A stretch of DNA of 52,198 nt, from positions 1-52,198 of IMG/VR virus record IMGVR_UViG_3300012927_000002; one strand, 5' to 3'. The notes beneath the pieces were generated by a model that did not search any database, was not told the origin of the DNA, and worked only from the letters and a program-made list of their open reading frames with translations. The DNA comes from a virus. Below, piece by piece: positions 2,473 to 43,487 of the stretch (position 1 is the first letter of the stretch; every line of letters starts with the position of its first letter). The position numbers and the translations under genes were made by a program.

Positions 2473-3680
2473 CAGAACGCCAGCTGAGCCGACGTCCGGG
2501 TCGGCAGCAGGTAGTCGCCCGGCACCAGCCATCCCGGCGTGGCGATGTCGTTGAGCGCCTCGATCTGCCGTGTGCGATCGAGAGCGTCGGCGCCGCCGTA
2601 GACCCGGGCGGCGAGCGGCAAGAGCGCGACCGGAGAGAGCACGCGCATCGTGAACGTCGACGGCGTCTCGGAGGTCGCGGCGATCGCGGCGTTGCGCACG
2701 GCATCGCCGAGCATGATCGCCGTACGGAACGCCGGCCACAGCTGCAGATCGCTCTCGAACTCGCCGAGGTCGATCATCGTCGCGATGTTGTCGGAGATGC
2801 GGGAGGCGTCGATCAGGATCTGGCGAGTCGAGACGGCGCCCGACGCCCAGGCGGACACCGAGACGCGGGCGTCGACCGACACGGCCGCGAACAGACCGGC
2901 CGAGGCATCCGCGGTGGCCGCCGCCGACAGCGCTGCCGAGGCATCGACGGAGACGGAAGCCGTCGCGGACACGGTCGCGGACGCGGTGGCCGATGCGGTC
3001 GCGGTCGCGGCTGCCGACGCGTTCGCTGCGACCGACGCGGCTGCCGACACCGCGATGCTCGCCGAGACGTCCACGGAGACATCCACGGAAGCCGTGATCG
3101 CGATCGAAGCGTCGAAGCCGAACGAGAGATTGGTCGGGCTCGACAGCGGCAGCAGCGACGACAGGGTGGCCCCCGACATCTTGAGCTTGCCCATGTTCGA
3201 CAGCTCCGTATCGAGCGAGGTCGCCGCGGCGGACACCGAGCTTTCCCCGGACGTCCCGCTCGAGGCCGCCCCGGTCGGCGTGACCGCCTGGTCGGCGTCC
3301 TCCTGGATGAACTCGGCGTCCGCGGAGATGACACTGTGCTCGTCGATGGTGGAGATGAACTCTCCGATGCTGGCCTCGAATCGGCCGAGCGTGGGGTGCT
3401 GGAACATCGCGGTGGCGCCGCTCGCCACCGCGGCTTCCATGGCGTCCGCGGCTTCGCGCGGGCCCGGGGCGCCCGGGAAGTCGTCGAACTGCAGTTTGCA
3501 CCGGACCCGGCGAGCGCGCCGCCCGCGGTCCTGCACCGGATGCGCGTCACCGGACGAGAGATCGTGAACCACCTGGGTCCGACTTCCGTCGGTGGTGACC
3601 TTCTCGCAGAACAGCCGAATCCTCCCCCAGCTGGCGGATGACAGCGTCGCGGTGCCCTGGAGGAAGTCGACTAGTGGCAT
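2472..3680 (-). CDS. DNA-circulation-like baseplate hub protein (Mu gpN/gp43 type) with a low-complexity Ala/Ser/Val/Thr/Asp insert
   Basis: 402 aa directly downstream of the tape measure gene. The N-terminus SWGRIRLFCEKVTTDGSRTQVVHDLSSGDAHPVQDRGRRARRVRCKLQF resembles the DNA_circ_N signature. Confidence 0.65.
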   Translation of the reverse strand: MPLVDFLQGTATLSSASWGRIRLFCEKVTTDGSRTQVVHDLSSGDAHPVQDRGRRARRVRCKLQFDDFPGAPGPREAADAMEAAVASGATAMFQHPTLGRFEASIGEFISTIDEHSVISADAEFIQEDADQAVTPTGAASSGTSGESSVSAAATSLDTELSNMGKLKMSGATLSSLLPLSSPTNLSFGFDASIAITASVDVSVDVSASIAVSAAASVAANASAAATATASATASATVSATASVSVDASAALSAAATADASAGLFAAVSVDARVSVSAWASGAVSTRQILIDASRISDNIATMIDLGEFESDLQLWPAFRTAIMLGDAVRNAAIAATSETPSTFTMRVLSPVALLPLAARVYGGADALDRTRQIEALNDIATPGWLVPGDYLLPTRTSAQLAF

Positions 3681-21679: not shown

Positions 21680-22224
21680 CACGCCGCCACCTTCGCGGCT
21701 TCGGCCTTCGCGCGCGCGGCGTCGATCTTGTCCTGGAGCTCGGCGAGCTGGGACATGACCGCATCCCCGGTCGTGAAGGCTGGGAGGCCGAGCGCGAACA
21801 GGGCCTCGCACATCTCGCAGCTTCGCGACGGGTCGCCCTCGAGCTTGCCGTCGAGGCCGCACGCGCAGAGCGCCCATCCCGCGGGCTGCTCAGCCGCGGT
21901 GACGGTAAGCGCCACCAGATCCGTCATCGCCTGAAAGATCCGGTCGTAGCCCTTTGACTTGGAGCGGAGAGAGTTGGACTTCTTCCAGTATTCACGCTGC
22001 TTTAGGCTGTACTCACTGAGCGGAGTACGCTCCCAGGCCGACAGGAACTCGGCTCGCTTCTCGCCCTCCAGCTGAAATGTGGCCGCCAGCCGCTGGGCGC
22101 GCTCCGCGCTGATCACGCGATGGGAGGCGGACTCGACGTTTCCGTAGGTCGAGAGCTTCACGCCGATTGCCTGCGCAACCTCGCGTTGTTTCATGGCTTT
22201 TTCGATCCTGTACGATCGAGACAT
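21679..22224 (-). CDS. XRE-family helix-turn-helix transcriptional regulator (repressor/Cro-like) with a C-terminal Cys cluster
   Basis: YRIEKAMKQREVAQAIGVKLSTYGNVESASHRVISAERAQRLA is a classic HTH_3 pattern. It is the first gene of the minus-strand operon and faces the AT-rich control region. The start is uncertain (22224, 22257 or 22194). Confidence 0.75.
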   Translation of the reverse strand: MSRSYRIEKAMKQREVAQAIGVKLSTYGNVESASHRVISAERAQRLAATFQLEGEKRAEFLSAWERTPLSEYSLKQREYWKKSNSLRSKSKGYDRIFQAMTDLVALTVTAAEQPAGWALCACGLDGKLEGDPSRSCEMCEALFALGLPAFTTGDAVMSQLAELQDKIDAARAKAEAAKVAA

Positions 22225-22415
22225 TATACCAAAGTCGGACTTTTGGGATGAATTCATAATGTCATGTTGAACGCAACATGAGGGGTTAGTCAAGGTCTTC
22301 GAGTAATGAGCTAACTAACCCGTTGGATAAGTTGAAGTATATAGTAATTTTACCCGGCCATTCAATCCTGGTTGGTTACACTTTCTATCGAATGTTAGTT
22401 GTGATCTCTATATTA

Positions 22416-22459
22416 CTCTCCTTCTCCCCGGTCCTAAAGAGGACCGGTGGAGAAGAGAG
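22416..22459. other. Long imperfect stem-loop (about 19 bp, loop aaag)
   Basis: ctctccttctccccggtcct-aaag-aggaccggtggagaagagag. There are two single-nt bulges and no flanking U-tract on either strand. Confidence 0.7.
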
Positions 22460-22726
22460 AGGGGTGAGGGGACAAGAGTAAGGGGGAAACGACTCCCGGA
22501 CCCCGGTCGACCTGGAATCCGGGTGCTGACGTACCCACCTAGCACAAGCCGACGACGATTCGCATTAAACTGCTGGAATCGTTCACATGTCGCGGTTTTT
22601 TGCTGGCCTATGACAAAAAAGTCATGATGACTGTATGCACCAAGACATTTCTGTCGCACTTAGTGTACTTTGAACACGATTTTTGGTGAGAGGTAGCCGA
22701 GCTGTCGCACCCCCACCCCACGCGAC

Positions 22727-22984
22727 GATATCCTTAGGCCCTGCACCTGGTTACACCCCACGTCCTGCTCCCACGTCCTGCTCATGGCCCTGCACCAGCG
22801 GCCCGAACCGAGCTCGATGCGGTCACCGGGCGCCGATGCCACATGCCCAAAATCGCGCCAGAACAGGGCTAGGCTGCACGTTCGATGCACCGGCCGCATA
22901 ACCACCGGACCCACGCACTGAACGCGCCTCCGGTCATCCTATCGGAGCACTGCCGGAGCAGTAGGGCCTAAGGCTTAGGATATC
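22727..22984. repeat. 16-nt inverted repeat pair flanking about 220 nt
   Basis: gatatccttaggccct (22727-22742) versus agggcctaagg[cttagg]atatc (22963-22984). The interior contains the tandem cacgtcctgctc x2. Confidence 0.7.
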
Positions 22985-23196
22985 AACGCGTGATCATGCG
23001 TTACAGATCGCCAAGTGATTGAAATCGTTGGTGTGACAGGTCGTCACGTCGACCGTTGCTTTTCGCCACGATCGCTCCCATATCCTAACGCTAGCTACTG
23101 TAGCGCCGCCTAAGCATATGGGATTTTGAGGTTGGCACGAAGATCGCAGATGGATTTCTCGTCGCTAGATTCCCCCCACCGTAGGAGACACGCACC

Positions 23197-23337
23197 ATGC
23201 ACACCCTTCCCACCACGTCGCCGTACGCCACCATGACCGCCGCCGAGGTACTGGCTACCGTGGCCGCCCGGCTCGAGCAGTACGCCGCGGAGGACGCCGA
23301 GCGCGCCGCCCGGTTCGCCGCCCTGATGTCCGCCTAA
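23197..23337 (+). CDS. Hypothetical small early protein (46 aa)
   Basis: Hand-translated as MHTLPTTSPYATMTAAEVLATVAARLEQYAAEDAERAARFAALMSA. It is preceded by taGGAGacacgcaccATG, the same SD context as the other early genes. Confidence 0.5.
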   Translation: MHTLPTTSPYATMTAAEVLATVAARLEQYAAEDAERAARFAALMSA

Positions 23338-23370
23338 CCCTAACCCTAACCCACGTCACACACAGGAGAT

Positions 23371-23664
23371 ATGCACATGTCGAACACCGCCATCACGACC
23401 CGCCCCACCACGTACCCCGCCATCGACCGCCTCGTGAAGCACGTCCGGGACGCCTGCCGCGAGGAGCTCGTGCACTATGCCGGGGCCGCGCACCGCGACG
23501 CCTTCGCCTGGCTCGTGGTGCAGGCGTTCCTGTCGCACCCCGAGCTGTGCGAGGCGGACCTCCGGGTCAAGGCCCACACGGCTCGGGGGCAGACCGTGGA
23601 CGCGGCGTACATGCGCCGCCACTACTCGACCACGACCGGCCAGCACTGGGCACCCCAGGGCTGA
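23371..23664 (+). CDS. Hypothetical early protein
   Basis: 97 aa. SD acAGGAGatatgcacATG. The start is 23371 or 23377. Confidence 0.55.
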   Translation: MHMSNTAITTRPTTYPAIDRLVKHVRDACREELVHYAGAAHRDAFAWLVVQAFLSHPELCEADLRVKAHTARGQTVDAAYMRRHYSTTTGQHWAPQG

Positions 23665-23730
23665 GGGACTGGTAGGGCCCGCGACCCCAGGGTCGTGCGG
23701 CTGTGCCGGTCGCCTCAACGAGCACCCACT

Positions 23731-23779
23731 CCGTCAAGCGTCGTACTCGACGCACCACGTCAAACCAGGAGCACGCACC
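23731..23779 (+). promoter_or_regulatory. Early intergenic element copy 1 (RTCAAAC-N3-GTACTCG-N9-RTCAAAC-CAGGAG)
   Basis: ccGTCAAGCgtcGTACTCGacgcaccacGTCAAACCAGGAGcacgcaccATG. The half-sites lie 26 nt apart. Confidence 0.6.
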
Positions 23780-24139
23780 ATGCGCAACCTCGCCCCGTCC
23801 AGCCGCGCCACCCTCGCAGACATCATCTCGGACCGCCGAGCGGCAGCTACCGCGTGGCTTCGCGACACCATCGCCCCGTCCAGCCTCACCGCCCTGCCTC
23901 ACCCGACGCACAACCTCGCCGAGCTCGAGTCCGCGTTCAACGCGCGGCGCCTCGAGCTGGCCCACCACGAGCGGGTCACGGCCTGGATCGCCAGCATCGC
24001 GCCCCAGGTCCGCACCGTGGCACCCCATAGGGCGCCGCGCGATGGCCGGGGCCGCTTCCTGAGCAAGGCGTGGCTGCAGCGCGCCGAGACGTTCACCGCC
24101 GCCGACCTCGCGTTCTTCCGCTCGCCGCTCAACGGCTAG
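23780..24139 (+). CDS. Hypothetical early protein
   Basis: 119 aa from the ATG after element 1 (MRNLAPSSRATLADIISDRRAAATAWLRD...). The longer track ORF start was rejected. Confidence 0.55.
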   Translation: MRNLAPSSRATLADIISDRRAAATAWLRDTIAPSSLTALPHPTHNLAELESAFNARRLELAHHERVTAWIASIAPQVRTVAPHRAPRDGRGRFLSKAWLQRAETFTAADLAFFRSPLNG

Positions 24140-24184
24140 CGCTTGACAGCACAGCTACCCAACGCTACACAGGAGACACGCACC

Positions 24185-24592
24185 ATGCGCCGAACCATCG
24201 CCGCCATCGTCCTGGCCATCACGACCACTGCCCACGCTGCACCTCGCCACAAGGCGCACAAGCCCCGCGCCGAGTCGAAGTGGGTGCGCGACTGCATCCA
24301 CGAGCGGACCGGCCCCACCGAGGGCATCACGGTCGCCGAAGCCCGCCGCATCTGCGTCGCCGAGGAGCCGGAGGACGAGGTCGGCGCGGCGCGGCGCGGC
24401 CTCACCCTGGCCCGGCTCAACGCCAAGGTGGCCAAGGCCAAGGCGCGGGTCGCCAAGGCCATCGAGACGTGCGAGCAGGCGGTCACGGACCGCTGCGTCG
24501 AGCTCGCGAAGCCCGACGGCAGCACCGACTGCGAGGACACCGGGCTGCGCGCCGAGTTCAACCTGGTGTGCCTCGCCGCGGAGGGCAAGTAG
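24185..24592 (+). CDS. Secreted Cys-containing early protein (signal peptide MRRTIAAIVLAITTTAHA/AP)
   Basis: 135 aa from the ATG after ACAGGAGacacgcaccATG. It has a typical n-h-c signal peptide with AHA-A, and 6 Cys in the mature part. Confidence 0.6.
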   Translation: MRRTIAAIVLAITTTAHAAPRHKAHKPRAESKWVRDCIHERTGPTEGITVAEARRICVAEEPEDEVGAARRGLTLARLNAKVAKAKARVAKAIETCEQAVTDRCVELAKPDGSTDCEDTGLRAEFNLVCLAAEGK

Positions 24593-24594
24593 CC

Positions 24595-24801
24595 ATGGAC
24601 CCGACCGCCTGTCTGCGCCGCATCGACCTCCCCGTGCGCATCAACGCTGACACCCAGTACGCCATGCTGGACCTGCACACGTGGCTCCTGGGCAAGGGCT
24701 TCTCGCCGGACTGGGCGCGCTACCCCCGCGGCACGCGCCGCTTCCGGCGCAAGTTCGGGACGTGGCCGGGCATGACCAGCCGCGGCGCGGTCGCCAAGTA
24801 G
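24595..24801 (+). CDS. Hypothetical early protein
   Basis: 68 aa: MDPTACLRRIDLPVRINADTQYAMLDLHTWLLGKGFSPDW.... It starts 3 nt after the upstream stop. Confidence 0.5.
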   Translation: MDPTACLRRIDLPVRINADTQYAMLDLHTWLLGKGFSPDWARYPRGTRRFRRKFGTWPGMTSRGAVAK

Positions 24802-24850
24802 CACCCCGGATCCAGCGCGCGACCCTCGCCCACCGGCGACTCACCCCATC

Positions 24851-24897
24851 CCGTCAAACATCGTACTCGTGATGCCAAGTCACATCCAGGAGACACC
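24851..24897 (+). promoter_or_regulatory. Early intergenic element copy 2
   Basis: ccGTCAAACatcGTACTCGtgatgccaaGTCACATCCAGGAGacaccATG. Half-site spacing is 26 nt. Confidence 0.6.
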
Positions 24898-25308
24898 ATG
24901 TCGACCGACCCCAACCGCTGCTTTCAGCTCCGCGTTCGCATCCCCGGTAACGGCGCGACCCAGCCGGCCCCGGTGTGCACCATCACCGCCTACGACCACA
25001 ACTGGTCGCTGGCCGACAGCCACGGCCGCATCGACGTCGAGGTGCGCCACGACGGCGCGGTCGTGTTCCCGCTCGGTCAGCTGTACTGCGCCGTCAGCAA
25101 GGCGTGCGGCCACAGCTCCGATGGCAAGGCGGCCCGCGAGCTCGTGATGTCGCTGGTCGCGATGCGGCCCTCGGCGCGCGGCGGTGAGGGCGAGGACTAC
25201 TACGCCGGATACACCCCCGAGCAGCTTGCGTGGGTCGAGGCGCACGGCGAGGACATCGACATGGAGCGCGAGCGCCGCTACTGCGACGAGAACGGGGAGG
25301 TCAAGTAG
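24898..25308 (+). CDS. Hypothetical early protein
   Basis: 136 aa ORF directly after element 2. Confidence 0.6.
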   Translation: MSTDPNRCFQLRVRIPGNGATQPAPVCTITAYDHNWSLADSHGRIDVEVRHDGAVVFPLGQLYCAVSKACGHSSDGKAARELVMSLVAMRPSARGGEGEDYYAGYTPEQLAWVEAHGEDIDMERERRYCDENGEVK

Positions 25309-25310
25309 CC

Positions 25311-25556
25311 ATGGCGGACGTGGCCATCGCCTACCTCGACGACAAGCGCGTGACCGCCAAGCGCGCGACCACGCCGCCGATTCACCGGAGCGCCTCGGGC
25401 TACGGCAGTAAGATCCCGACCCAGTGGCTCCTGCAGATCGACGGCAAGCGCTGGCATCGCGTCTACGTGGTGCAGTGGTCCAACGCGGGATCCTGCTACG
25501 TCCTCGTCGGCGGTGAGCGGCTCTTTCTCGGCAGCTATGACCCTGGTTTGGACTGA
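25311..25556 (+). CDS. Hypothetical early protein
   Basis: 81 aa: MADVAIAYLDDKRV...SGYGSKIPTQWLLQIDGKRWHRVYVVQWSNAGSCYV. It looks conserved, but the family is not named. Confidence 0.55.
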   Translation: MADVAIAYLDDKRVTAKRATTPPIHRSASGYGSKIPTQWLLQIDGKRWHRVYVVQWSNAGSCYVLVGGERLFLGSYDPGLD

Positions 25557-25638
25557 GCACCCCGGGCCCGCGGCGCCCATCGGCTGCACCACGCGTTGTG
25601 GTGGGCTGACCGACGCCACGCCTCACCAGGAGCGCACC

Positions 25639-25914
25639 ATGCACCACGCCACCCACACCATCGAGCTCGACGCGATCGCCGCGACCCAGGATCTCGCCAA
25701 GGCGCTGCGCAGCTACCACCTCGCCACGCGGCGGCCCCGCAAGCGCTCGTGCTGGGCGTTCGTCGTCACGTGGCTGTGGTCGGCGCGCCGCGATGCGATC
25801 TGCGAGGGCGCACTGCGCCGCTTCACCCCCGAGTACGACGCGGTGAGCGATTGCCTCCGCGACGCCTCGGCCCGGCTTCACCGCTGCCAGGCGGACGCCG
25901 ACCTCCGCGTGTAG
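25639..25914 (+). CDS. Hypothetical early protein
   Basis: 91 aa from the ATG after ACCAGGAGcgcaccATG. The hairpin caccacgcgttgtggtg lies upstream. Confidence 0.5.
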   Translation: MHHATHTIELDAIAATQDLAKALRSYHLATRRPRKRSCWAFVVTWLWSARRDAICEGALRRFTPEYDAVSDCLRDASARLHRCQADADLRV

Positions 25915-25926
25915 CGAGACGCCACT

Positions 25927-25972
25927 CCATCAAACTTAGTGCTCGTAACCCCAAGTCAAACCAGAGGACTCC
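25927..25972 (+). promoter_or_regulatory. Early intergenic element copy 3
   Basis: ccATCAAACttaGTGCTCGtaaccccaaGTCAAACCAGAGGactccATG. Half-site spacing is 26 nt. Confidence 0.6.
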
Positions 25973-26617
25973 ATGCCCAAGATCATCCGTAATCGTTACA
26001 CGTCTGCCATCATCCACTCGAGTGAGCTTCCGACGTGGCGTGAAGCTGTCGAGGAGGCGATCGAAGCCCGCGCCGACCTGACCGACGCCAACCTGACCCG
26101 CGCCGACCTGACCGGCGCCAACCTGACCGACGCCGACCTGACCGGCGCCAACCTGACCGACGCCGACCTGACCGACGCCAACCTGACCCGCGCCGACCTG
26201 ACCGGCGCCAACCTGACCCGCGCCGACCTGACCGGCGCCAACCTGACCGACGCCGACCTGACCGGCGCCAACCTGACCGACGCCGACCTGACCGACGCCA
26301 AGGAAGATTTCCTCGCCGTCCTCGACGCGGCCCCGAACGAGGTTGCTGGCCTCCTCCTGGCGCTGCGCGAGGGCCGCATCGACGGCTCGCACTACGAAGG
26401 AGCGTGCTCCTGCCTAAAAGGCACGATCGCCAACGTTCGGGGCTGTCGCTATACCGAACTCGGCGACGCCGATGCGTTGCAACCAAACAGCGATCGCCCC
26501 AGCGAGCGGCTGTTCATGGGTATCTCGCCTGGCCACCTACCGAGCATCAACCCCGTCGCAAAAATCGTTGAGGGGTGGATCCTGGAGTGGCAGTCCGCGA
26601 ACGGCGGGGCGGCGTGA
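25973..26617 (+). CDS. Pentapeptide-repeat protein with a Cys-containing C-terminal domain
   Basis: 214 aa. About 15 consecutive A(D/N)LT(D/G/R) pentapeptides ([25 protein letters not shown]...) are flanked by unique N- and C-terminal regions. Confidence 0.9.
26071..26300 (+). repeat. Near-perfect 30-nt tandem repeat (about 7.7 units) encoding the pentapeptide array
   Basis: cgccgacctgaccg(a/g)cgccaacctgacc(c/g)(g/a) is repeated head to tail. The array is in frame and has no spacers. Confidence 0.95.
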
Positions 26618-26784
26618 TGTTCGTCCTCGACCGTCTGTTCTCGCTCCTCACCGCGCTGCACGTTGCGCCCCACCCCATCGCGGCCATCGCCCGCGAATTC
26701 CCCGAGTGTGTCGAAGAGTACGGCACCGATGGGCTGTCGGGGCTCGACGCCGACGAGCTCGAAGAGGCTTGCACCGAATGGTGA
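26617..26784 (+). CDS. Hypothetical acidic small protein (55 aa)
   Basis: TGATG junction with the pentapeptide gene. [55 protein letters not shown]. Confidence 0.45.
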   Translation: MFVLDRLFSLLTALHVAPHPIAAIAREFPECVEEYGTDGLSGLDADELEEACTEW

Positions 26785-26841
26785 GCTAGCTCCCCGCTCG
26801 GCTTCGCGACCCCGGTCGCGCGGCCCTGGCGAGACCCTAGC

Positions 26842-26887
26842 CCATCAAACTTAGTACTCTTTTCGCCACATCAACCCAGGAGGCACC
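26842..26887 (+). promoter_or_regulatory. Early intergenic element copy 4
   Basis: ccATCAAACttaGTACTCTtttcgccacATCAACCCAGGAGgcaccATG. Half-site spacing is 26 nt. Confidence 0.6.
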
Positions 26888-28444
26888 ATGTCTGACACCG
26901 ACACCGCTCTCGAGATCGAAATGGACTGCACCGTCTGCGGTCGCTACAGCACCAGCGCCGTTTGCCCGGCGTGCGCCCCGGCCGCCGGCCGCACGTTCCA
27001 TGACGCCGCGGCAGAGCGAGCTGTCGCCGACCAGGGCTCGGTGACTCAGCCGACCACGCCCGCCGATGAGCTGATCGACCGCGGGATCGCTGCAGACGTC
27101 GCCGCCCTCCGCATTGTCACAGCCGAGGCGAGCGCCAACGCGGCCGTCCAGGGCGCCGGCTCACTCGCCGGCGGCCAGCTGCGCGGCGTGGGCTACTCGA
27201 CGGTGGCCGGCTACATCACGGCCATCCGCAATGGCGTCGTGCCGCGGACCCACGCGCTCTACCTCGAGACGCTGCGCGGGCGCTTCGGGATGACCTCGGG
27301 CGAGGTCGAGGCGCTCAACCTGCCCGGACCCGCGACGATGGCGGACATGCCTACGAGCGCCAACCCCACTGTCCACACGCCGACCGGGCCCAGCATTTTC
27401 GACCGCCCGCGTGCGGAGCGCGCGTTCGTGGTCGGCCCGAAGGTGGACTCGAGCGAAGCCGCCCCGGTCGTCAAGCTCGAGCACGGCACGCTGATCGCCG
27501 GCGCGGTCGCCGAAGGATGCGGCGTGCTGGTCGGCTGGTCGGGCAAGGGCAAGCTGACCCGCGGCGCGCTCGTGGCGGCGATCGCCGAGCACGACGTCAA
27601 GCCCCCGGCGGCGACCTCGGCTCGAGCTCAGGCTGGCCGCGTCATGTCGGCGCTGACCGGCTCGGGCTACGTGGTGCGCATCGCCCGCGGCGGCGGCGCG
27701 GTGACGCAGTGGACGGTGGGTGTCGTCAACCACAAGTCGGCCGTGGGCTCGGAGCTCGGGTCGGTCGAGATGCGCGCCTCGCTGTCGGCGGATGGCACGC
27801 TCACGACCGAAGGCAGCGAAGGACTCGGGGCCAAGGTGCGCGCGGAGTTCGCGGCCCTGGTCGGCGAGGAGATCTACCAGGCGGGTGACGTCACCAGCTG
27901 GCTCGGCGGCGTCCTGGCGTCGCGCTTCGACGCGGTCCGCTTCGGGGTCGGCTGGTATGTCCCGGCGCGCCACGCCGAAGCGGCCGGCAAGCTGTGCGCG
28001 ACCATGAGTAAGATCTTCGGGGTGGACTGGATCGTGCCGGCGCTGCCGGTGGCGACCAGCGATCAGCTCCGCGATGGCATCGTCCGCGGCCTGACGTCCG
28101 AGGTCGACGCGCTCATGGCCCGGCTGGCGACCGAGCGCGCCACGGCCAAGATCAACGCAGACGCGGCGCCGCTTCGCCAGCCGGGAAAGATCCCGAGCGG
28201 CGACATCGGCCCGAAGCGCGCCGGGACGTTTCTGGTCGACCTGCGCGGCATCGGGGCCCGAATCGTGGCCTACGGCCAGGTTCTCGGCGAGGAGCGCCTG
28301 GCCTGCGCCAGGGAGCAAGTCCGCCAGGCCGTGATCGAGCTGGAGTCCGTGCTCGGCGACGACTACAGCGGGATATCGGCGCGGTTCTCGGCCGTGTGGG
28401 ACGAGATCGAGCTGGACCGCAAGCGCGCCGGGGGCGTGCTGTGA
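26888..28444 (+). CDS. Large hypothetical early protein with an N-terminal CxxC...CxxC zinc ribbon
   Basis: 518 aa. MSDTDTALEIEMDCTVCGRYSTSAVCPACAP.... I can name no family for the rest. Confidence 0.65.
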   Translation: MSDTDTALEIEMDCTVCGRYSTSAVCPACAPAAGRTFHDAAAERAVADQGSVTQPTTPADELIDRGIAADVAALRIVTAEASANAAVQGAGSLAGGQLRGVGYSTVAGYITAIRNGVVPRTHALYLETLRGRFGMTSGEVEALNLPGPATMADMPTSANPTVHTPTGPSIFDRPRAERAFVVGPKVDSSEAAPVVKLEHGTLIAGAVAEGCGVLVGWSGKGKLTRGALVAAIAEHDVKPPAATSARAQAGRVMSALTGSGYVVRIARGGGAVTQWTVGVVNHKSAVGSELGSVEMRASLSADGTLTTEGSEGLGAKVRAEFAALVGEEIYQAGDVTSWLGGVLASRFDAVRFGVGWYVPARHAEAAGKLCATMSKIFGVDWIVPALPVATSDQLRDGIVRGLTSEVDALMARLATERATAKINADAAPLRQPGKIPSGDIGPKRAGTFLVDLRGIGARIVAYGQVLGEERLACAREQVRQAVIELESVLGDDYSGISARFSAVWDEIELDRKRAGGVL

Positions 28445-28647
28445 CCGTCGACTGGGCGAAGCTCCGCCACGTCATCGAAGCCGGCACCATCGAGGCTTGC
28501 GTGGACGCCGGGCTCACGCGGGTTGCGGTCCGCGTGGTTCTCACGCCGCTGCCGAGCGGGACCCCGGCGATCACCGTGGAAGTGCTCGAGGTCTCCGAGG
28601 AGCTCGCCGCCATGGTCCGCGCCGAGAGCAAGATCAGCGGCAACTAG
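28441..28647 (+). CDS. Hypothetical protein
   Basis: 68 aa from GTG 28441 (GTGA overlap). Confidence 0.45.
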   Translation: MTVDWAKLRHVIEAGTIEACVDAGLTRVAVRVVLTPLPSGTPAITVEVLEVSEELAAMVRAESKISGN

Positions 28648-28727
28648 TAGCAGGGCCGCCGTGCCCGTTGAGCGCCCACCTCGTGGACGTTCACCGGACG
28701 CTACGTCCAACCACCAAGGAGTCAGCA

Positions 28728-29171
28728 GTGAACAAGAAACAGAACATTCCCGTGATGCGAGATCCCACCTGCGCCGGGTGCGGCGAGCCCGTCGACTACG
28801 CCGACCGCGAGCCGGTCAGCGACGGCCGCACGCTGTGGCACTTCCAGTGCTACCTGGTCCACCCGGACCCGCAACGCCCGACCACCAACTACACGCTCGT
28901 CAGCGGTCGTCCGGTGATGGCGCGGGGCGTTGGGATGCCGCTCGAGTACAACGAGAGCGAGGTCCGCGATCGCATCGTCCGCAACCTGACCGCGCCGCCC
29001 GCCACCATGGATCCCGCGCGCATGATCCGGTGGCTCGAGGGCAAGATCACCGGATGGGAGAAGCTCGAGGCGCGCGCGACCGCGAATCGCATCCGCAAGC
29101 AATACGCCTGGCAGCTCCTCCACGCGCGCGCCGTGCTTGCGCTGCTGCGGAGCCTCGGGGGCGGGGCGTGA
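28728..29171 (+). CDS. Hypothetical protein (CAGC...FQC Cys/His motif)
   Basis: 147 aa from GTG 28728, preceded by ccAAGGAGtcagcaGTG. Confidence 0.55.
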   Translation: MNKKQNIPVMRDPTCAGCGEPVDYADREPVSDGRTLWHFQCYLVHPDPQRPTTNYTLVSGRPVMARGVGMPLEYNESEVRDRIVRNLTAPPATMDPARMIRWLEGKITGWEKLEARATANRIRKQYAWQLLHARAVLALLRSLGGGA

Positions 29172-33880: not shown

Positions 33881-33909
33881 TTGACGGCATCGAACTAGTT
33901 GTGTACTAC
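33881..33909 (+). promoter_or_regulatory. Candidate sigma70-type promoter for a near-leaderless transcript of the replication operon
   Basis: TTGACG-17 nt-TACTAC, then 9 nt to ATG 33919. No SD lies between them. Confidence 0.4.
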
Positions 33910-33918
33910 TTTCCTAGC

Positions 33919-40328: not shown

Positions 40329-43300
40329 CTAGAGCTGGTTGACGACGCCGCGCATCGCCAGGCCGGACGGCTCGATCAGGTAGACCCGGGCCCCGCTGGT
40401 GAACGTGGCCACCAGGTCGTGCGAGTAGACGTTCGCCGCGAGCCCGGCGTTGTCGGCCGGAAGCACGGTGATCGCGACCTGGGGCGTGACCGCGCCCGCC
40501 GTGATGACGATGCCCGCGCCGAGCGACTTGCCAACCAGTGCCGGATCCGGGTCGCCGCGGTTGAGCTTGACCTGCCACTCGAGCGTGACCACCTGCCACT
40601 TTCCCGTGGTGAGGTCAACTGGTAGTCCGGTGTCGGGGTCAAGTACACCAACTGTGATCACACGGCTCTCGCCGCGGAGCATCTGGAGGTAGAGCTGCAT
40701 CGTCCTGCCTTCGCGGGTGAGAAGACGTGGCGCCCGCGCGACCACGATCGGTCGAAGGTCGACCAGCGGCGGGGTGAAGTTGAGGGCGGCCGAGAACGGC
40801 GACGCCTCCCCGCCCTGCTGCGCCGTCCGCACACGGAGCAGGAAGTCGGGGAAGTACGGCGCCCACAGCGGCGGCGCGGGGGCCTGTGGGATGACCAGGA
40901 CCGGGCCGACCGCCTCGCCTGGCGCCGTCCGGCGAGCTCGCAGCGGGACCATGACCGGCTGCGCCAGCCAGCTGTTGACCGCGGGCACCACCGGCGGCGG
41001 CACGATCGCCACGGGCGCGACCTCGCCGGCGGTCTGCCGCGAAATCGTGCGGGCGAGCGCGTGCGGGAAGCTCGGCGACCAGGAGGTGACGAGCGGGACC
41101 GCCGCCGGCGCGGGCGTCGTGACCGGCGCCGTCTCGCCGCCCTGGAGGCGCACCAGGGCGCGAGGCGCGGCGTCCGGGAAGCTGGGCGCCCAGCTCGAGA
41201 TCGACGGCACCGAGGCCGCGACCACGACGACCGGGGGCGCCGTCTCGCCGGCCGTGATCCGGATCGGCGACCGGGGGATCAGGTCAGGCGCGCTCGACCA
41301 CCACGGCGCCGGGGCGAAGTTCAACGCCGGCGCGGTCTCGCCGGATGGCTGCCGACGTGAGGCGCGACCGATCAAGTCGGGGAACGCGGGGGCCCAGCTC
41401 AGCAGCGGCGCAGCCGGCGCCGGAAGCCGCGGAGGCGCAGTCTCGCCGCCCTCGAGAACCCGGCGCGCGCGCCGCGGGATCTCGTCCTGCCGATACAGCC
41501 AGTCAAACGGCTGCAGGTCGGTCGTCACCGCCTGGAACGCGAGGTGCCAGAGGATCGCGCCCTCGGGGCCGTCGCCGCTGACCGTGCCCTGCGTGCTGTA
41601 CTTGTAGGTCCCGGCGATGTCGACCAGGCGGGTGAACACCTCGATCTGGATATAGCCAGCCGGGTCGCAGTCGCCCTCGGCGCAGACCCGCGCGATCCGC
41701 GTGTAGCCTGCCGGCGTGGTGAAGATGTGGCCCTGGTTGACGTTGCCGTTGCCGCCAACGATCGCGACGAGGAGGGCCTTGGCGGTGGTGGTGACCGCCG
41801 CGCTCGTGATCGTCGCCGAGGTCCCGTTGGCGACCTCGAGCACGCTCGACGACTGCAGGATCGGCGTGTTGAACAGCTCGAGGCCGGCGATCACCACCTC
41901 GTCTTGCTGGCCGCCGATGTTGCCGATCGCCGCCGACCAGGTGTGCCCCGCGCCGCCAGCCCCTCGCGCGATCGAGACCGAGAACGAGGAGCTGGGGAAC
42001 GCGTCGTAGTTGCGCGGCGCGCTCGGGATGTAGCTGTACGTATTGCCGAACGAGTCGGTCGCCTGGTTCGGCGCGGTGGCCTGGGTGCCGCGCGCGAAGA
42101 TCGCCAGGAACGTCGAGTACAACGGCTGCGTGTTGACCGTGCGGACGAGCGTGTGTGTGCCGGTCCCGGCGTCCGTGAGGTCGACCGCGGTGCCGGCCTT
42201 GGCGAGCGCCGGCGACAGCGCGAGCTTCACGGTCGTCGTGCTCGGCACGATCATGTAGTAGAGCGTCGTCGAGTCGGACCCCGCCGGCAGCGTCCCGGTC
42301 GTCGAGAGCCGGAACGGGCCGGCCGTCACGATCATCCCGTGCGTGCCGGTGGTGAGCGTGTCGGTCGCCGCGACCGCGGTGAACGTGAGGTCCGTGCCGA
42401 ACGTGGTGAGCGGCGTGGCGAAGGCCAGCTGGTTGAGGATGTTCTGCCGGACCGCGCCGTCTCCGACGGTCAGCGACCTGCCGCCGGACGGCGGCGGCGA
42501 GACCGCCCCGGCCGCAGCGTGGAGCGGATGGCGGGCCCGGTTGATGATGTCGGGGAACGTCGGCGCCCACGACAGCGGCGAGACGGGAACGGTCAGGACG
42601 ATCGCGACAGGCCCCATCATCCCGCCGACGTTGAGCGGGCTCCGGGCTCGCGGAACCAGATCCGGAAAGACCGGCGTCCAGCTGAGGGGCGGCGCCGGGA
42701 TGTTCGTGATGACCGTGACCGGGCCGGTGACGCCGCCGACGTTGAGCGGGCTCCGGGCTCGCGGCACCAGATCGGGGAACTGCGGCGTCCAGGACATCGC
42801 TGGCGCCGCGGCGGCGAGCGTGATCTTCTCGGGCGCGCACTGGCCGCCGACGTTGAGCGGCGCGCGCGCCCGAGGGATCTGATCCGGGAACGTCGGCGCC
42901 CACGACAGCGGCGGGACGGGCGCGCTCGGCAGGACGGGAGGCGCGACCAGGGCGGCGACCAGGAGGGCGGCGCTGGCGACGCGGCGCACCGGCATCTCGT
43001 GGATGCACGGAGACCACGACATGTCGGGCGTCAGGTCGTCGACGTTGCTCAGCGTTCCGACGAAATCGAACGTCGGCCCCGGCGTGAAGCTGCCCAGGTA
43101 GAGCGTGTCCGTGACGTCGTGGTACGGCCCGGCCAGCGTGTACGAGAACGTGCCGTTTCCGGTCAGCGCGCCCGAGATCGTGACGGTCTTCGCGCGCGCA
43201 TCGTCGATGACCGTGATCGGCGTACCACCGAGCCAGGTCAGCGCCTGGTCGAAGACCGTGGCGTCCCCGGGGGCGGTGAACTTCTGGAGGTGGGTATCGA

Positions 43301-43487
43301 CCAGCCAGATCCCGCCGTGCGCGCCCGAGAACAGGATGTGGAAGTTGCCGCCGGTGTACGTCGCGCTCGCCGCGGTCGGCGTGAACACGAACCGGGTCAC
43401 CCCGAAGTTGAACGCCCTGGCGTACCCGTTGTACGTGCCCGGCGCGAACGAGCGCGGGATCGACGGTACCGGCAGGACCACCGTCAT
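40329..43487 (-). CDS. Giant tail-fibre/receptor-binding-type protein with two arrays of SWxPxFPDxxPR modules
   Basis: 1052-aa single ORF. Layout: N-terminal about 160 aa, hydrophobic segment (167-190), 4 repeats, about 320-aa central beta-rich region, about 7 degenerate repeats, and a C-terminal about 120-aa Ig/BppU-N-like domain. Confidence 0.65.
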   Translation of the reverse strand: MTVVLPVPSIPRSFAPGTYNGYARAFNFGVTRFVFTPTAASATYTGGNFHILFSGAHGGIWLVDTHLQKFTAPGDATVFDQALTWLGGTPITVIDDARAKTVTISGALTGNGTFSYTLAGPYHDVTDTLYLGSFTPGPTFDFVGTLSNVDDLTPDMSWSPCIHEMPVRRVASAALLVAALVAPPVLPSAPVPPLSWAPTFPDQIPRARAPLNVGGQCAPEKITLAAAAPAMSWTPQFPDLVPRARSPLNVGGVTGPVTVITNIPAPPLSWTPVFPDLVPRARSPLNVGGMMGPVAIVLTVPVSPLSWAPTFPDIINRARHPLHAAAGAVSPPPSGGRSLTVGDGAVRQNILNQLAFATPLTTFGTDLTFTAVAATDTLTTGTHGMIVTAGPFRLSTTGTLPAGSDSTTLYYMIVPSTTTVKLALSPALAKAGTAVDLTDAGTGTHTLVRTVNTQPLYSTFLAIFARGTQATAPNQATDSFGNTYSYIPSAPRNYDAFPSSSFSVSIARGAGGAGHTWSAAIGNIGGQQDEVVIAGLELFNTPILQSSSVLEVANGTSATITSAAVTTTAKALLVAIVGGNGNVNQGHIFTTPAGYTRIARVCAEGDCDPAGYIQIEVFTRLVDIAGTYKYSTQGTVSGDGPEGAILWHLAFQAVTTDLQPFDWLYRQDEIPRRARRVLEGGETAPPRLPAPAAPLLSWAPAFPDLIGRASRRQPSGETAPALNFAPAPWWSSAPDLIPRSPIRITAGETAPPVVVVAASVPSISSWAPSFPDAAPRALVRLQGGETAPVTTPAPAAVPLVTSWSPSFPHALARTISRQTAGEVAPVAIVPPPVVPAVNSWLAQPVMVPLRARRTAPGEAVGPVLVIPQAPAPPLWAPYFPDFLLRVRTAQQGGEASPFSAALNFTPPLVDLRPIVVARAPRLLTREGRTMQLYLQMLRGESRVITVGVLDPDTGLPVDLTTGKWQVVTLEWQVKLNRGDPDPALVGKSLGAGIVITAGAVTPQVAITVLPADNAGLAANVYSHDLVATFTSGARVYLIEPSGLAMRGVVNQL
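40773..41507 (-). repeat. Degenerate coding repeat array 2 (about 7 units of about 35 aa: SW(A/S)P(A/S)FPD..PR.....GGE(T/A)AP)
   Basis: Read from translation residues 661-905. Confidence 0.7.
42482..42917 (-). repeat. Coding tandem repeat array 1 (4 units of about 112 nt: PLSW(A/T)P.FPD..PRAR.PLNVGG)
   Basis: Near-identical DNA segments, e.g. gggaacgtcggcgcccacgacagcggcg at about 42553 and about 42887, and ccgccgacgttgagcgggctccgggctcgcgg twice. Confidence 0.8.

Follow-up and report, generated by a model that had tools for sequence, protein, structure and literature searches.

We examined a short intergenic element that occurs four times in front of genes of a presumed early arm in the DNA of a virus, IMG/VR record IMGVR_UViG_3300012927_000002 (positions 1 to 52,198; this whole stretch of 52,198 bp, 67.7% GC, is termed the window). 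Seventeen further copies were found in eight related metagenomic phages with the same mosaic early arm, for 21 copies over nine genomes. All 21 were intergenic and lay on the strand of the following gene, with a TACT core 30-48 nt (median 35) before the start codon. We consider, with slightly better than even confidence, that each copy would represent a compact promoter-plus-leader cassette of this phage clade.

Each of the four window copies (Table 1) lay between genes on the + strand, with an ATG 33-36 nt downstream. An earlier note on this DNA described them as phased copies with half-sites 26 nt apart, and reading all four in sequence bore this out: the start-to-start distance between half-sites was exactly 26 nt in each, and the spacing was the same throughout (7 + 3 + 7 + 9 + 7 nt, then 11-14 nt to the ATG). 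The positions 23731, 24851, 25927 and 26842 given in that note correspond to the "cc" preceding half-site 1. Half-site 2 (site 2) was followed by AGGAG or GAGGA, resembling a Shine-Dalgarno (SD) sequence. The 17 nt pattern RTCAAAC-N3-GTRCTCK, with two or fewer mismatches permitted, gave 5 matches vs 1.19 expected, a level reached by 0 of 100 shuffles; four of these were the copies and the fifth was the downstream part of copy 1. A hidden Markov model (HMM) of the copies revealed no fifth copy on either strand of the 52 kb. Pairwise identity among the four was 0.70 in the element vs 0.38 in the 57 nt upstream, 0.33 at the start of the downstream genes (first 60 nt), and 0.28 between random 36-mers; identity of the element was far above that of its flanks, and the copies therefore do not represent a recent duplication of one gene's 5' region. 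The element formed the A/T-rich peak of each spacer within a genome of 68% GC. The pattern TCAMMY plus SD was seen only at the four copies and at open reading frame (ORF) 23371 (leader TCACAC+AGGAG); it occurred at 0 of the other 38 SD/ORF sites listed and at none on the minus strand, and was absent from late genes. Because of this confinement, the element is not a general ribosome-binding-site feature.

Table 1. Coordinates of the element copies, their parts, the upstream hairpins and the eight upstream regions of the rightward arm within the window.
Feature	Position	Strand	Sequence or context
Element copy 1	23730..23779	+	tcc-GTCAAGC-gtc-GTACTCG-acgcaccac-GTCAAAC-cAGGAGcacgcacc; abuts ATG 23780 (119-aa ORF 23780-24139)
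Element copy 2	24850..24897	+	ccc-GTCAAAC-atc-GTACTCG-tgatgccaa-GTCACAT-ccAGGAGacacc; before ATG 24898 (136-aa ORF)
Element copy 3	25926..25972	+	tcc-ATCAAAC-tta-GTGCTCG-taaccccaa-GTCAAAC-caGAGGActcc; before ATG 25973 (pentapeptide-repeat protein)
Element copy 4	26841..26887	+	ccc-ATCAAAC-tta-GTACTCT-tttcgccac-ATCAACC-cAGGAGGcacc; before ATG 26888 (conserved 518-aa protein)
Half-site 1 (RTCAARC)	23733-23739, 24853-24859, 25929-25935, 26844-26850	+	
GTRCTCK	23743-23749, 24863-24869, 25939-25945, 26854-26860	+	
Half-site 2	23759-23765, 24879-24885, 25955-25961, 26870-26876	+	
GC-rich stem-loop region	23663..23716	+	between stop of ORF 23371-23664 and copy 1; core CGCGACCCCAGGGTCGTG 23680-23697
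Small hairpin	26805..26820	+	CGCGAC-CCCG-GTCGCG (CGCGACCCCGGTCGCG); upstream of copy 4
Upstream region 1	before ORF 23197		sigma-54-like site
Upstream region 2	before ORF 23371		short (TAACCC)3 + GTCACAC leader, no box
Upstream region 3	before ORF 23780		element copy 1
Upstream region 4	before ORF 24185		TTGACA-N17-TACACA
Upstream region 5	before ORF 24898		element copy 2
Upstream region 6	before ORF 25639		two-hairpin spacer
Upstream region 7	before ORF 25973		element copy 3
Upstream region 8	before ORF 26888		element copy 4

Related phages were reached through the 518-aa protein encoded after copy 4, for which 77 homologs were present in public data; 14 distinct related loci were read (L003 equals L001, and L004 equals L002). 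Three copies each were present in L003, L004 and L014, two each in L009, L013 and L007 (the last with one degenerate copy in addition), and one each in L006 and L012. No copy was found in L005, L008, L010/L019, L011, L018 or L020-22; a metagenome scan gave 6 extra loci and 0 new copies, and a scan of genome contigs with 3 sequences gave no match. Scanning IMG/VR for exact ACAATTCGATACTT-N11-TCAA returned two matches and no convincing copy, L015 being the only one inspected; on its contig, of 55% GC, the match fell where the sequence seems to be coding; it looked like chance, and was rejected. Conservation in related genomes, upon which the earlier note had staked its interpretation, was thus found in 8 relatives. 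An HMM prepared from the relatives' 17 copies alone recovered the window copies as matches 1-4 (E = 0.003-0.02; next match, E = 3.7), and the element is therefore conserved and not a local duplication. Orthologs of the 518-aa gene in L012, L003, L006, L009 and L014 had a copy at the copy-4 position, and the L009 homolog of the 136-aa ORF downstream of copy 2 was likewise preceded by one (L009 3109); element and gene here form a recurring unit.

The consensus for the 21 copies was (c)tAtGACAATTyGA-TACT-yG-N9-RTCAAMC-(0-3 nt)-CAGGAG-N5-8-ATG. The successive bases of TACT were retained in 21, 18, 21 and 20 of the 21 copies. G-A preceded TACT in all 14 relatives' copies outside L004 (TG-A in three); the window and L004 copies were one base shorter (G-TACT vs GATACT), with L012 intermediate (ATCAAAC-ttt-GATACTCG). 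Further downstream, a purine stood 7 nt after GATACT in 15/21 copies, N9 position 7 was C in 20/21, and the T, C, A and A of site 2 were kept in 19, 21, 21 and 18 of 21, respectively. The gap from TACTYG to site 2 was always 9 nt; the distance from site 2 to the SD was variable, reaching 20 nt in L003. The first site in most relatives was ATGACAA, TTGACAA or GCTTTAT, and it resembled site 2 only in the window, L004 and L012. Identity within vs between genomes was 0.72 vs 0.45 for the upstream box, 0.80 vs 0.76 for TACTYG, and 0.71 vs 0.71 for site 2. To judge from these alignments, the core and second half-site are under clade-wide constraint and the first half-site is lineage-specific. The suggestion of an operator array with two equivalent half-sites, one of three options raised earlier, was not supported by the comparison: site 2 and TACT were universal over the 21 copies and nine genomes, and site 1 was not.

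Anatomy, conservation, orientation and position are shown by the sequences themselves; what we infer from them is promoter activity, a start site, and the polymerase and sigma used. Transcription by the host RNA polymerase would proceed rightward from a point a few bases before the second half-site, at a promoter made up of a lineage-specific A/T-rich box (the first half-site; ATCAAAC in the window, ATGACAAT in most relatives) and, directly after it, a -10-like core (GATACT in relatives, G-TACT in the window). No fixed -35 would be used, as for a -35-independent promoter of the extended -10 kind, and the conserved first bases of the transcript (purine, CC, n, n, RTCAAMC) would run into CAGGAG and the ATG. 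Where an upstream GC hairpin is present, it would stop or attenuate read-through, so that the downstream gene or gene pair becomes its own unit. The copies probably also serve as recombination linkers, because the same ~45 nt recurs within an ORFan-rich mosaic arm. The conserved, asymmetric, A/T-rich GATACT (the -10 hexamer of lambda PL), the purine 7 nt on, and the constant short distance to the gene together suggest a -35-independent promoter with the transcript arising from just before site 2. Of the options raised earlier, a reiterated phage-specific early promoter would fit best, the early timing being taken from the layout of the arm described below. In the spacer before the 518-aa gene, the box was present in six genomes; L008 instead had TGACGA-N17-TATATA, and L011 had the sigma-54-like TGGCACG-N4-TCGCA. 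Replacement of the box at this spacer by other promoter-like signals would support a promoter role. Canonical-looking sites elsewhere in the window pair a -35 with hexamers that start with TAC (TTGACA-17-TACACA, 24143-24171; TTGACG-17-TACTAC, 33882-33910), which also seems to favour such a role.

The small GC hairpins reported in the earlier note before copies 1 and 4 were present. Folding of 23640-23732, which includes the copy-1 stem-loop, gave a minimum free energy of -55.5 vs -39.1 for shuffles (z = -4.1), and this stem-loop is a candidate terminator or attenuator without a T-run. The copy-4 hairpin was local only, its region overall being no more stable than shuffles, and no significant hairpin was seen before copies 2 and 3 by folding against shuffles. 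Hairpins did occur upstream of most copies in the relatives. These hairpins appear to fit terminator-promoter units, and the terminator-promoter cassette proposed earlier would suit copies 1 and 4 and most of the relatives' copies. The further proposal that each early gene is separately controlled was borne out in part: 4 of the 8 upstream regions of the arm bear the element, but other signals stand elsewhere, and several genes are coupled (ORFs 24595, 25311 and 26617 are each translationally coupled to the preceding gene).

Several observations weigh against the copies being promoters of this kind. A conserved -35 was absent; no informative column was found upstream of the box in the 21 aligned copies, and GAC motifs clustered only loosely, at -30 to -22 from TACT. 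All window and L004 copies lacked the critical -11 A of GATACT (cGTACT, aGTACT, aGTGCT). In the GATACT register, window copies 1-4 read cGTACT, cGTACT, aGTGCT and aGTACT, each without A at position 2; the 14 non-L004 relatives' copies read GATACT and so have both the A at position 2 and the T at position 6. Shifting the register to TACTYG leaves copy 4 (TACTCT) as the only window copy that ends in T and fits TAnnnT. With the -11 A missing, the window copies would be poor as plain sigma-70 promoters. Conservation over about +2 to +12 is atypical of host promoters and requires an extra explanation; it may point to an added RNA- or DNA-level role of site 2. Upstream hairpins stood at only 2/4 window copies, and a T-run at none. 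Finally, the greater likeness of the box within genomes than between them could mean a co-evolving phage factor rather than the host polymerase alone.

A number of established signals were compared with the element and rejected. The remark in the earlier note that it does not fit TTGACA-17-TATAAT stands: a consensus scan (TTGACA-17+/-1-TATAAT) called nothing at any copy and there was no -35 column 16-18 bp upstream, which removes a canonical sigma-70 promoter. When the first box was taken as a -35, the hexamers at 17 nt downstream (ACACTT, TCCCAT, CCGCAT etc.) had no A at position 2. No GG-N10-GC pair for sigma-54 (TGGCAC-N5-TTGC) was present in the element, the sole window match (23133-23148) being outside it. 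For an extracytoplasmic function (RpoE-type) sigma, the AAC-to-GTC spacing was 19 nt in the window and L004 and 20 in L012, vs about 16-17 expected; site 2 (GTCAAA) resembles the RpoE -10, but most relatives are without AAC, and the best-conserved block falls in the spacer. The sigma-28 reading failed on spacing or core bases. An antisense promoter, from the reverse-strand GTTTGAC taken as TTGAC(g/t), would have a spacer of only 15-16 nt with poor hexamers (TAAGTT, GATGTT, GACGCT); conservation in the relatives was lacking, and its transcript would run counter to the genes. As for a structured RNA, RNAalifold on the 21 copies returned an open chain (0 pairs, energy 0), and there was no Rfam match within 22000-29000 at E <= 1 other than a chance microRNA match inside a coding sequence. 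A hairpin across GTACTCG could be drawn for copy 1 (CGTCG-TACT-CGACG), but its pairing was lost in the other copies and the alifold result was empty. Dyad symmetry of the form CAA-N8-TTG was found only in copies with TACTTG and is not general.

The missing -35 and the altered window core could be accounted for if the promoter were recognised only with a phage-encoded factor (a small sigma-like protein, an appropriator or an activator) binding the lineage-specific box, which we regard as unlikely. The factor would come from the first transcripts, made from the sigma-54-like or sigma-70-like promoters of the arm, and the cassettes would be delayed-early or "middle" promoters. Consistent with this, there is no fixed -35; the core without -11 A appears in all copies of a genome at once; the box is genome-specific, as the core and site 2 are not; and some relatives are without the element and use other upstream signals. 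Moreover, homologs of the 97-aa ORF 23371-23664 were present only in L004 and L012, the relatives that share a TCAAAC/CCAAAC-type box. That co-occurrence, however, comes from three closely related genomes and partial loci, and gene conversion between copies would explain the within-genome likeness of the box equally well, as in the T4-type cassettes discussed below. No sigma, polymerase or helix-turn-helix (HTH)/DNA-binding domain was seen in the early ORFs scanned (not every small ORF being covered), nor was a sigma factor or a phage RNA polymerase, which a T7-like single-subunit polymerase promoter would call for, found among the large ORFs scanned by Pfam, PHROGs and PDB sequence search, small ORFs being partly scanned. 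A 1052-aa ORF (window 40332-43487) shared only a ~90-aa domain with tail proteins, and PDB sequence searches with the 1052-aa and 518-aa proteins gave nothing usable. In its most extended form, for which our expectation is similarly low, a small early protein would redirect the host polymerase to a box abutting a degenerate -10 (G-TACT), with +2 to +12 serving as a second recognition or regulatory step; along with a sigma-54/IHF-like first promoter this would amount to a two-stage early programme and a new promoter class, in uncultured soil phages possibly on Methylomirabilota (Rokubacteria-like) hosts.

Two further explanations seem to us very improbable. In one, a phage or host protein would bind the two RTCAAAC direct repeats 26 bp apart and repress or activate each unit, the core being incidental. 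In the window, L004 and L012 the two sites do resemble each other and keep an exact phase, and site 2, universal at a fixed distance from the core and located at ~+7, could be a roadblock operator; but the first site is not a repeat of site 2 in L003, L006, L007, L009, L013 and 2/3 of the L014 copies, conservation is highest in the asymmetric GATACT that separates the two sites, a 26-bp phase places the sites on opposite helix faces, and dyad symmetry is lacking. The switch-region repeats beside the XRE gene (ATATCCTTAGGC-type) are unrelated, and the element occurs nowhere else in the genome. In the other, transcription would not start at the copies, which would act solely as RNA: a conserved 5' leader inside a long polycistronic early message, serving as translation enhancer, ribosome standby site, processing site or stabiliser. 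In its favour, most copies have site 2 adjoining the SD, the arm's leaders are C/A-rich and G-poor and therefore unstructured, and a TCACAC+AGGAG leader also precedes the box-less ORF 23371. Against it, site 2 keeps its 9-nt gap to TACTYG in the L003 copies too, although the SD there lies 9-20 nt further away, the strongest conservation lies in the upstream A/T-rich GATACT, with no obvious RNA role, neither conserved pairing nor an Rfam family was found, and late genes are without site 2 plus SD.

Read as a promoter-plus-leader cassette, the element belongs to a type of feature well known in phages, to which it adds a few unusual details. The promoter-early stem-loop cassettes (PeSLs) of the T4-type phages RB49 and phi1 carry strong canonical sigma-70 (-35/-10) promoters that are AT-rich upstream and whose activity was demonstrated experimentally (Arbiol et al. 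2010, PMC2839356). Like PeSLs (PMC2839356), the element is a short conserved intergenic cassette repeated in an ORFan-rich early region, carries a promoter (here a candidate), often with a GC stem-loop, ends in SD and start codon, and accompanies mosaic gene content between relatives. The two have no sequence homology, however; the element has no -35, has a GATACT/GTACT core and a conserved initially transcribed sequence, and carries a hairpin at some copies only (2/4 in the window, most in relatives). Extended -10, or -35-independent, sigma-70 promoters need no -35. The element resembles them in GATACT, a proven -10 hexamer, in the G-A (TG-A in three copies) before TACT, and in the purine 7 nt downstream in 15/21 copies; it differs in that TG is present in a minority of copies, the window copies are without the -11 A, and a conserved 12-14 nt box lies directly upstream and a conserved +2 to +12 stretch downstream.

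In Cluster K mycobacteriophages the start-associated sequence (SAS) is a 13-bp motif that includes the ribosome-binding site, and the stoperators of Cluster A are 13-bp repressor sites present genome-wide in dozens of copies. The present element shares with stoperators and with SAS and extended SAS (ESAS) a reiterated, orientation-linked short motif just upstream of gene starts; in contrast to SAS and stoperators, it is a ~45-nt composite with a -10-like core, and occurs 1-4 times in the early arm only. T4 MotA/AsiA middle, T4 gp55 late and Mu Mor/C promoters likewise combine a -10-type element without a usable -35 and a phage-specific box. The MotA box is at about -30 and the Mor box at about -43, whereas the box here directly adjoins the -10. 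No homologs of MotA/AsiA, gp55 or the Mor/C factors were found among the ORFs scanned. A reiterated private promoter on phage early genes would be expected rather than surprising to a specialist and opens no long-standing question. If the copies are promoters, they would at once supply a transcription map for a clade of high-GC phages, with genomes of ~52 kb, that only metagenomes have revealed, and the motif would mark the borders of exchangeable early-gene cassettes, as PeSLs do in T4-type phages. The absent -35, the lineage-wide loss of the -11 A and the conserved transcript start would make a tractable test case for -35-independent or factor-dependent initiation in the host phylum.

The window is a myovirus genome with Mu-type head genes and without a cultured relative. 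It encodes a Mu-type portal, gpT-like capsid, terminase, tail sheath, baseplate J and Gp48-like proteins, along with RecT, a PD-(D/E)XK nuclease, a DnaB-like helicase, a ParB-like protein and an XRE-type HTH protein; no tRNA gene was found in it. Near-identical DNA was not found among 50,697 phage records (INPHARED), and the portal was <=28% identical to that of any cultured phage. The relatives are metagenomic contigs of 50.5-52.3 kb, and because of this span the window is probably a complete, circularly permuted genome. Several related contigs start or stop just upstream of the rightward, element-bearing arm; the counterpart place in the window is the AT-rich, mainly non-coding 22200-23190 adjoining the leftward XRE gene (21682-22194, minus strand). 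It is on account of this layout that the rightward arm is called early and that early timing is inferred for its genes. Within the window the copies occurred only in the arm at 23.7-26.9 kb, beside the XRE gene and this AT-rich switch region. The arm is a mosaic in which most ORFs have no counterpart in the relatives and the order of genes varies; its small ORFs are ORFans. Two weak hints at the host were obtained. Among 185,579 species genomes a single relative was present, L014 (DATEMW010000326.1), a contig of 29 kb that binning had placed in a Candidatus Methylomirabilota metagenome-assembled genome. The second hint is a short domain common to the 1052-aa ORF and "Virus Rctr41k", which comes from a denitrifying anaerobic methane oxidation (DAMO) enrichment culture; they are weak because of the binning for the former and the 12% alignment for the latter.

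The early gene after copy 3 encodes a pentapeptide-repeat protein (25973-26617; Pfam PF00805, E = 3e-28) and is built of near-perfect tandem DNA repeats at ~26070-26300; no homolog was present in the relatives read. An anti-host or anti-defence role is conceivable, because pentapeptide proteins can mimic DNA.

Other signals were noted along the arm. A sigma-54-type site, TGGCACG-N4-TCGCA (GG-N10-GC; window 23133-23148), lies ~50 nt before ORF 23197-23337, the first small ORF of the arm. It was kept in place in eight relatives (L004 542, L007 436, L009 736, L010 299, L012 534, L013 357, L014 305; L011 6973, 8597 and 9844), and in most cases an IHF-like TTTCAAGGACTTG stands ~10 nt ahead of it and a conserved GAG...TTCTCGT follows; the fit is poor in L011, where no more than 12-13 nt separate the site from the ATG. 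Few phages would be expected to use sigma-54 for their first promoter, and such use would imply a host that has RpoN and is thus not an actinobacterium. The AT-rich switch region holds four ATATCCTTAGGC-like sequences in both orientations (22719-22742, 22963-22992, 23073-23091 and 23108-23123), among them an inverted pair, TCCCATATCCTAACGC / GCCTAAGCATATGGGA, that lies immediately before the sigma-54-like site; the repeats are candidates for operators or for sites bound by an enhancer-binding protein. Directed towards the XRE gene is a leftward TTGAAT-N18-TATACT at 22365-22336. Of the canonical-looking, sigma-70-like sites mentioned above, whose -10 hexamers are unusual, TTGACA-N17-TACACA lies before ORF 24185, and both its hexamers were kept in L012 with a varied spacer; TTGACG-N17-TACTAC lies 9 nt before ATG 33919, which suggests a leaderless transcript.

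Certain junctions between genes also recurred. The sequence GGAGG(G/T)CAAGTAGCCATG was found at window 24580-24597 and 25296-25313 and many times in L001/L002 (e.g., L001 3645-3662 and 3915-3932; L002 2603-2620 and 2775-2792); the final codons of the upstream gene, whose product terminates in -EGK* or -EVK*, double as the SD of the next, and the ATG comes 2 nt past the stop. As this junction joins unrelated ORFs in the relatives, it is a second type of reusable linker. A second conserved type of spacer, without the A/T box, occurs at window 25557-25638 and L012 2284-2364, with similar box-less spacers in L007 (before 912 and 6699), L008 (before 8679) and L010 (before 4692 and 6043). Its order is stop, GGGCC-N4-6-GCCC(A)TCGG, a variable perfect hairpin (window CACCAC-gcgtt-GTGGTG), TGACCGACGCC, a leader rich in C and A, and the SD. 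Element copies in L001 and L014 are preceded by the same hairpins and the CGACGCC box. The telomere-like hexamer repeat (TAACCC)3 at 23335-23352 runs from the stop of ORF 23197-23337 into the GTCACAC leader of ORF 23371, and was not conserved in L012 or L013. Regulatory motifs of the arm differ widely from one relative to another. Sequences like a tRNA T-arm (GGTTCGATTCC / GGGTCGAGTCC) lie directly upstream of early-gene spacers in L005 (~2650-2700), L010 (~3300-3350) and L013 (~1950-1985), the last immediately preceding an element copy. Other short direct repeats near the relatives' early genes were of the ACTGCGG type in L002 (1-320, a contig end), the TACCCCA type in L008 (6910-6940 and 12040-12100), and the GATCCCCGCAA type before the 518-aa gene in L010 (6870-6910).

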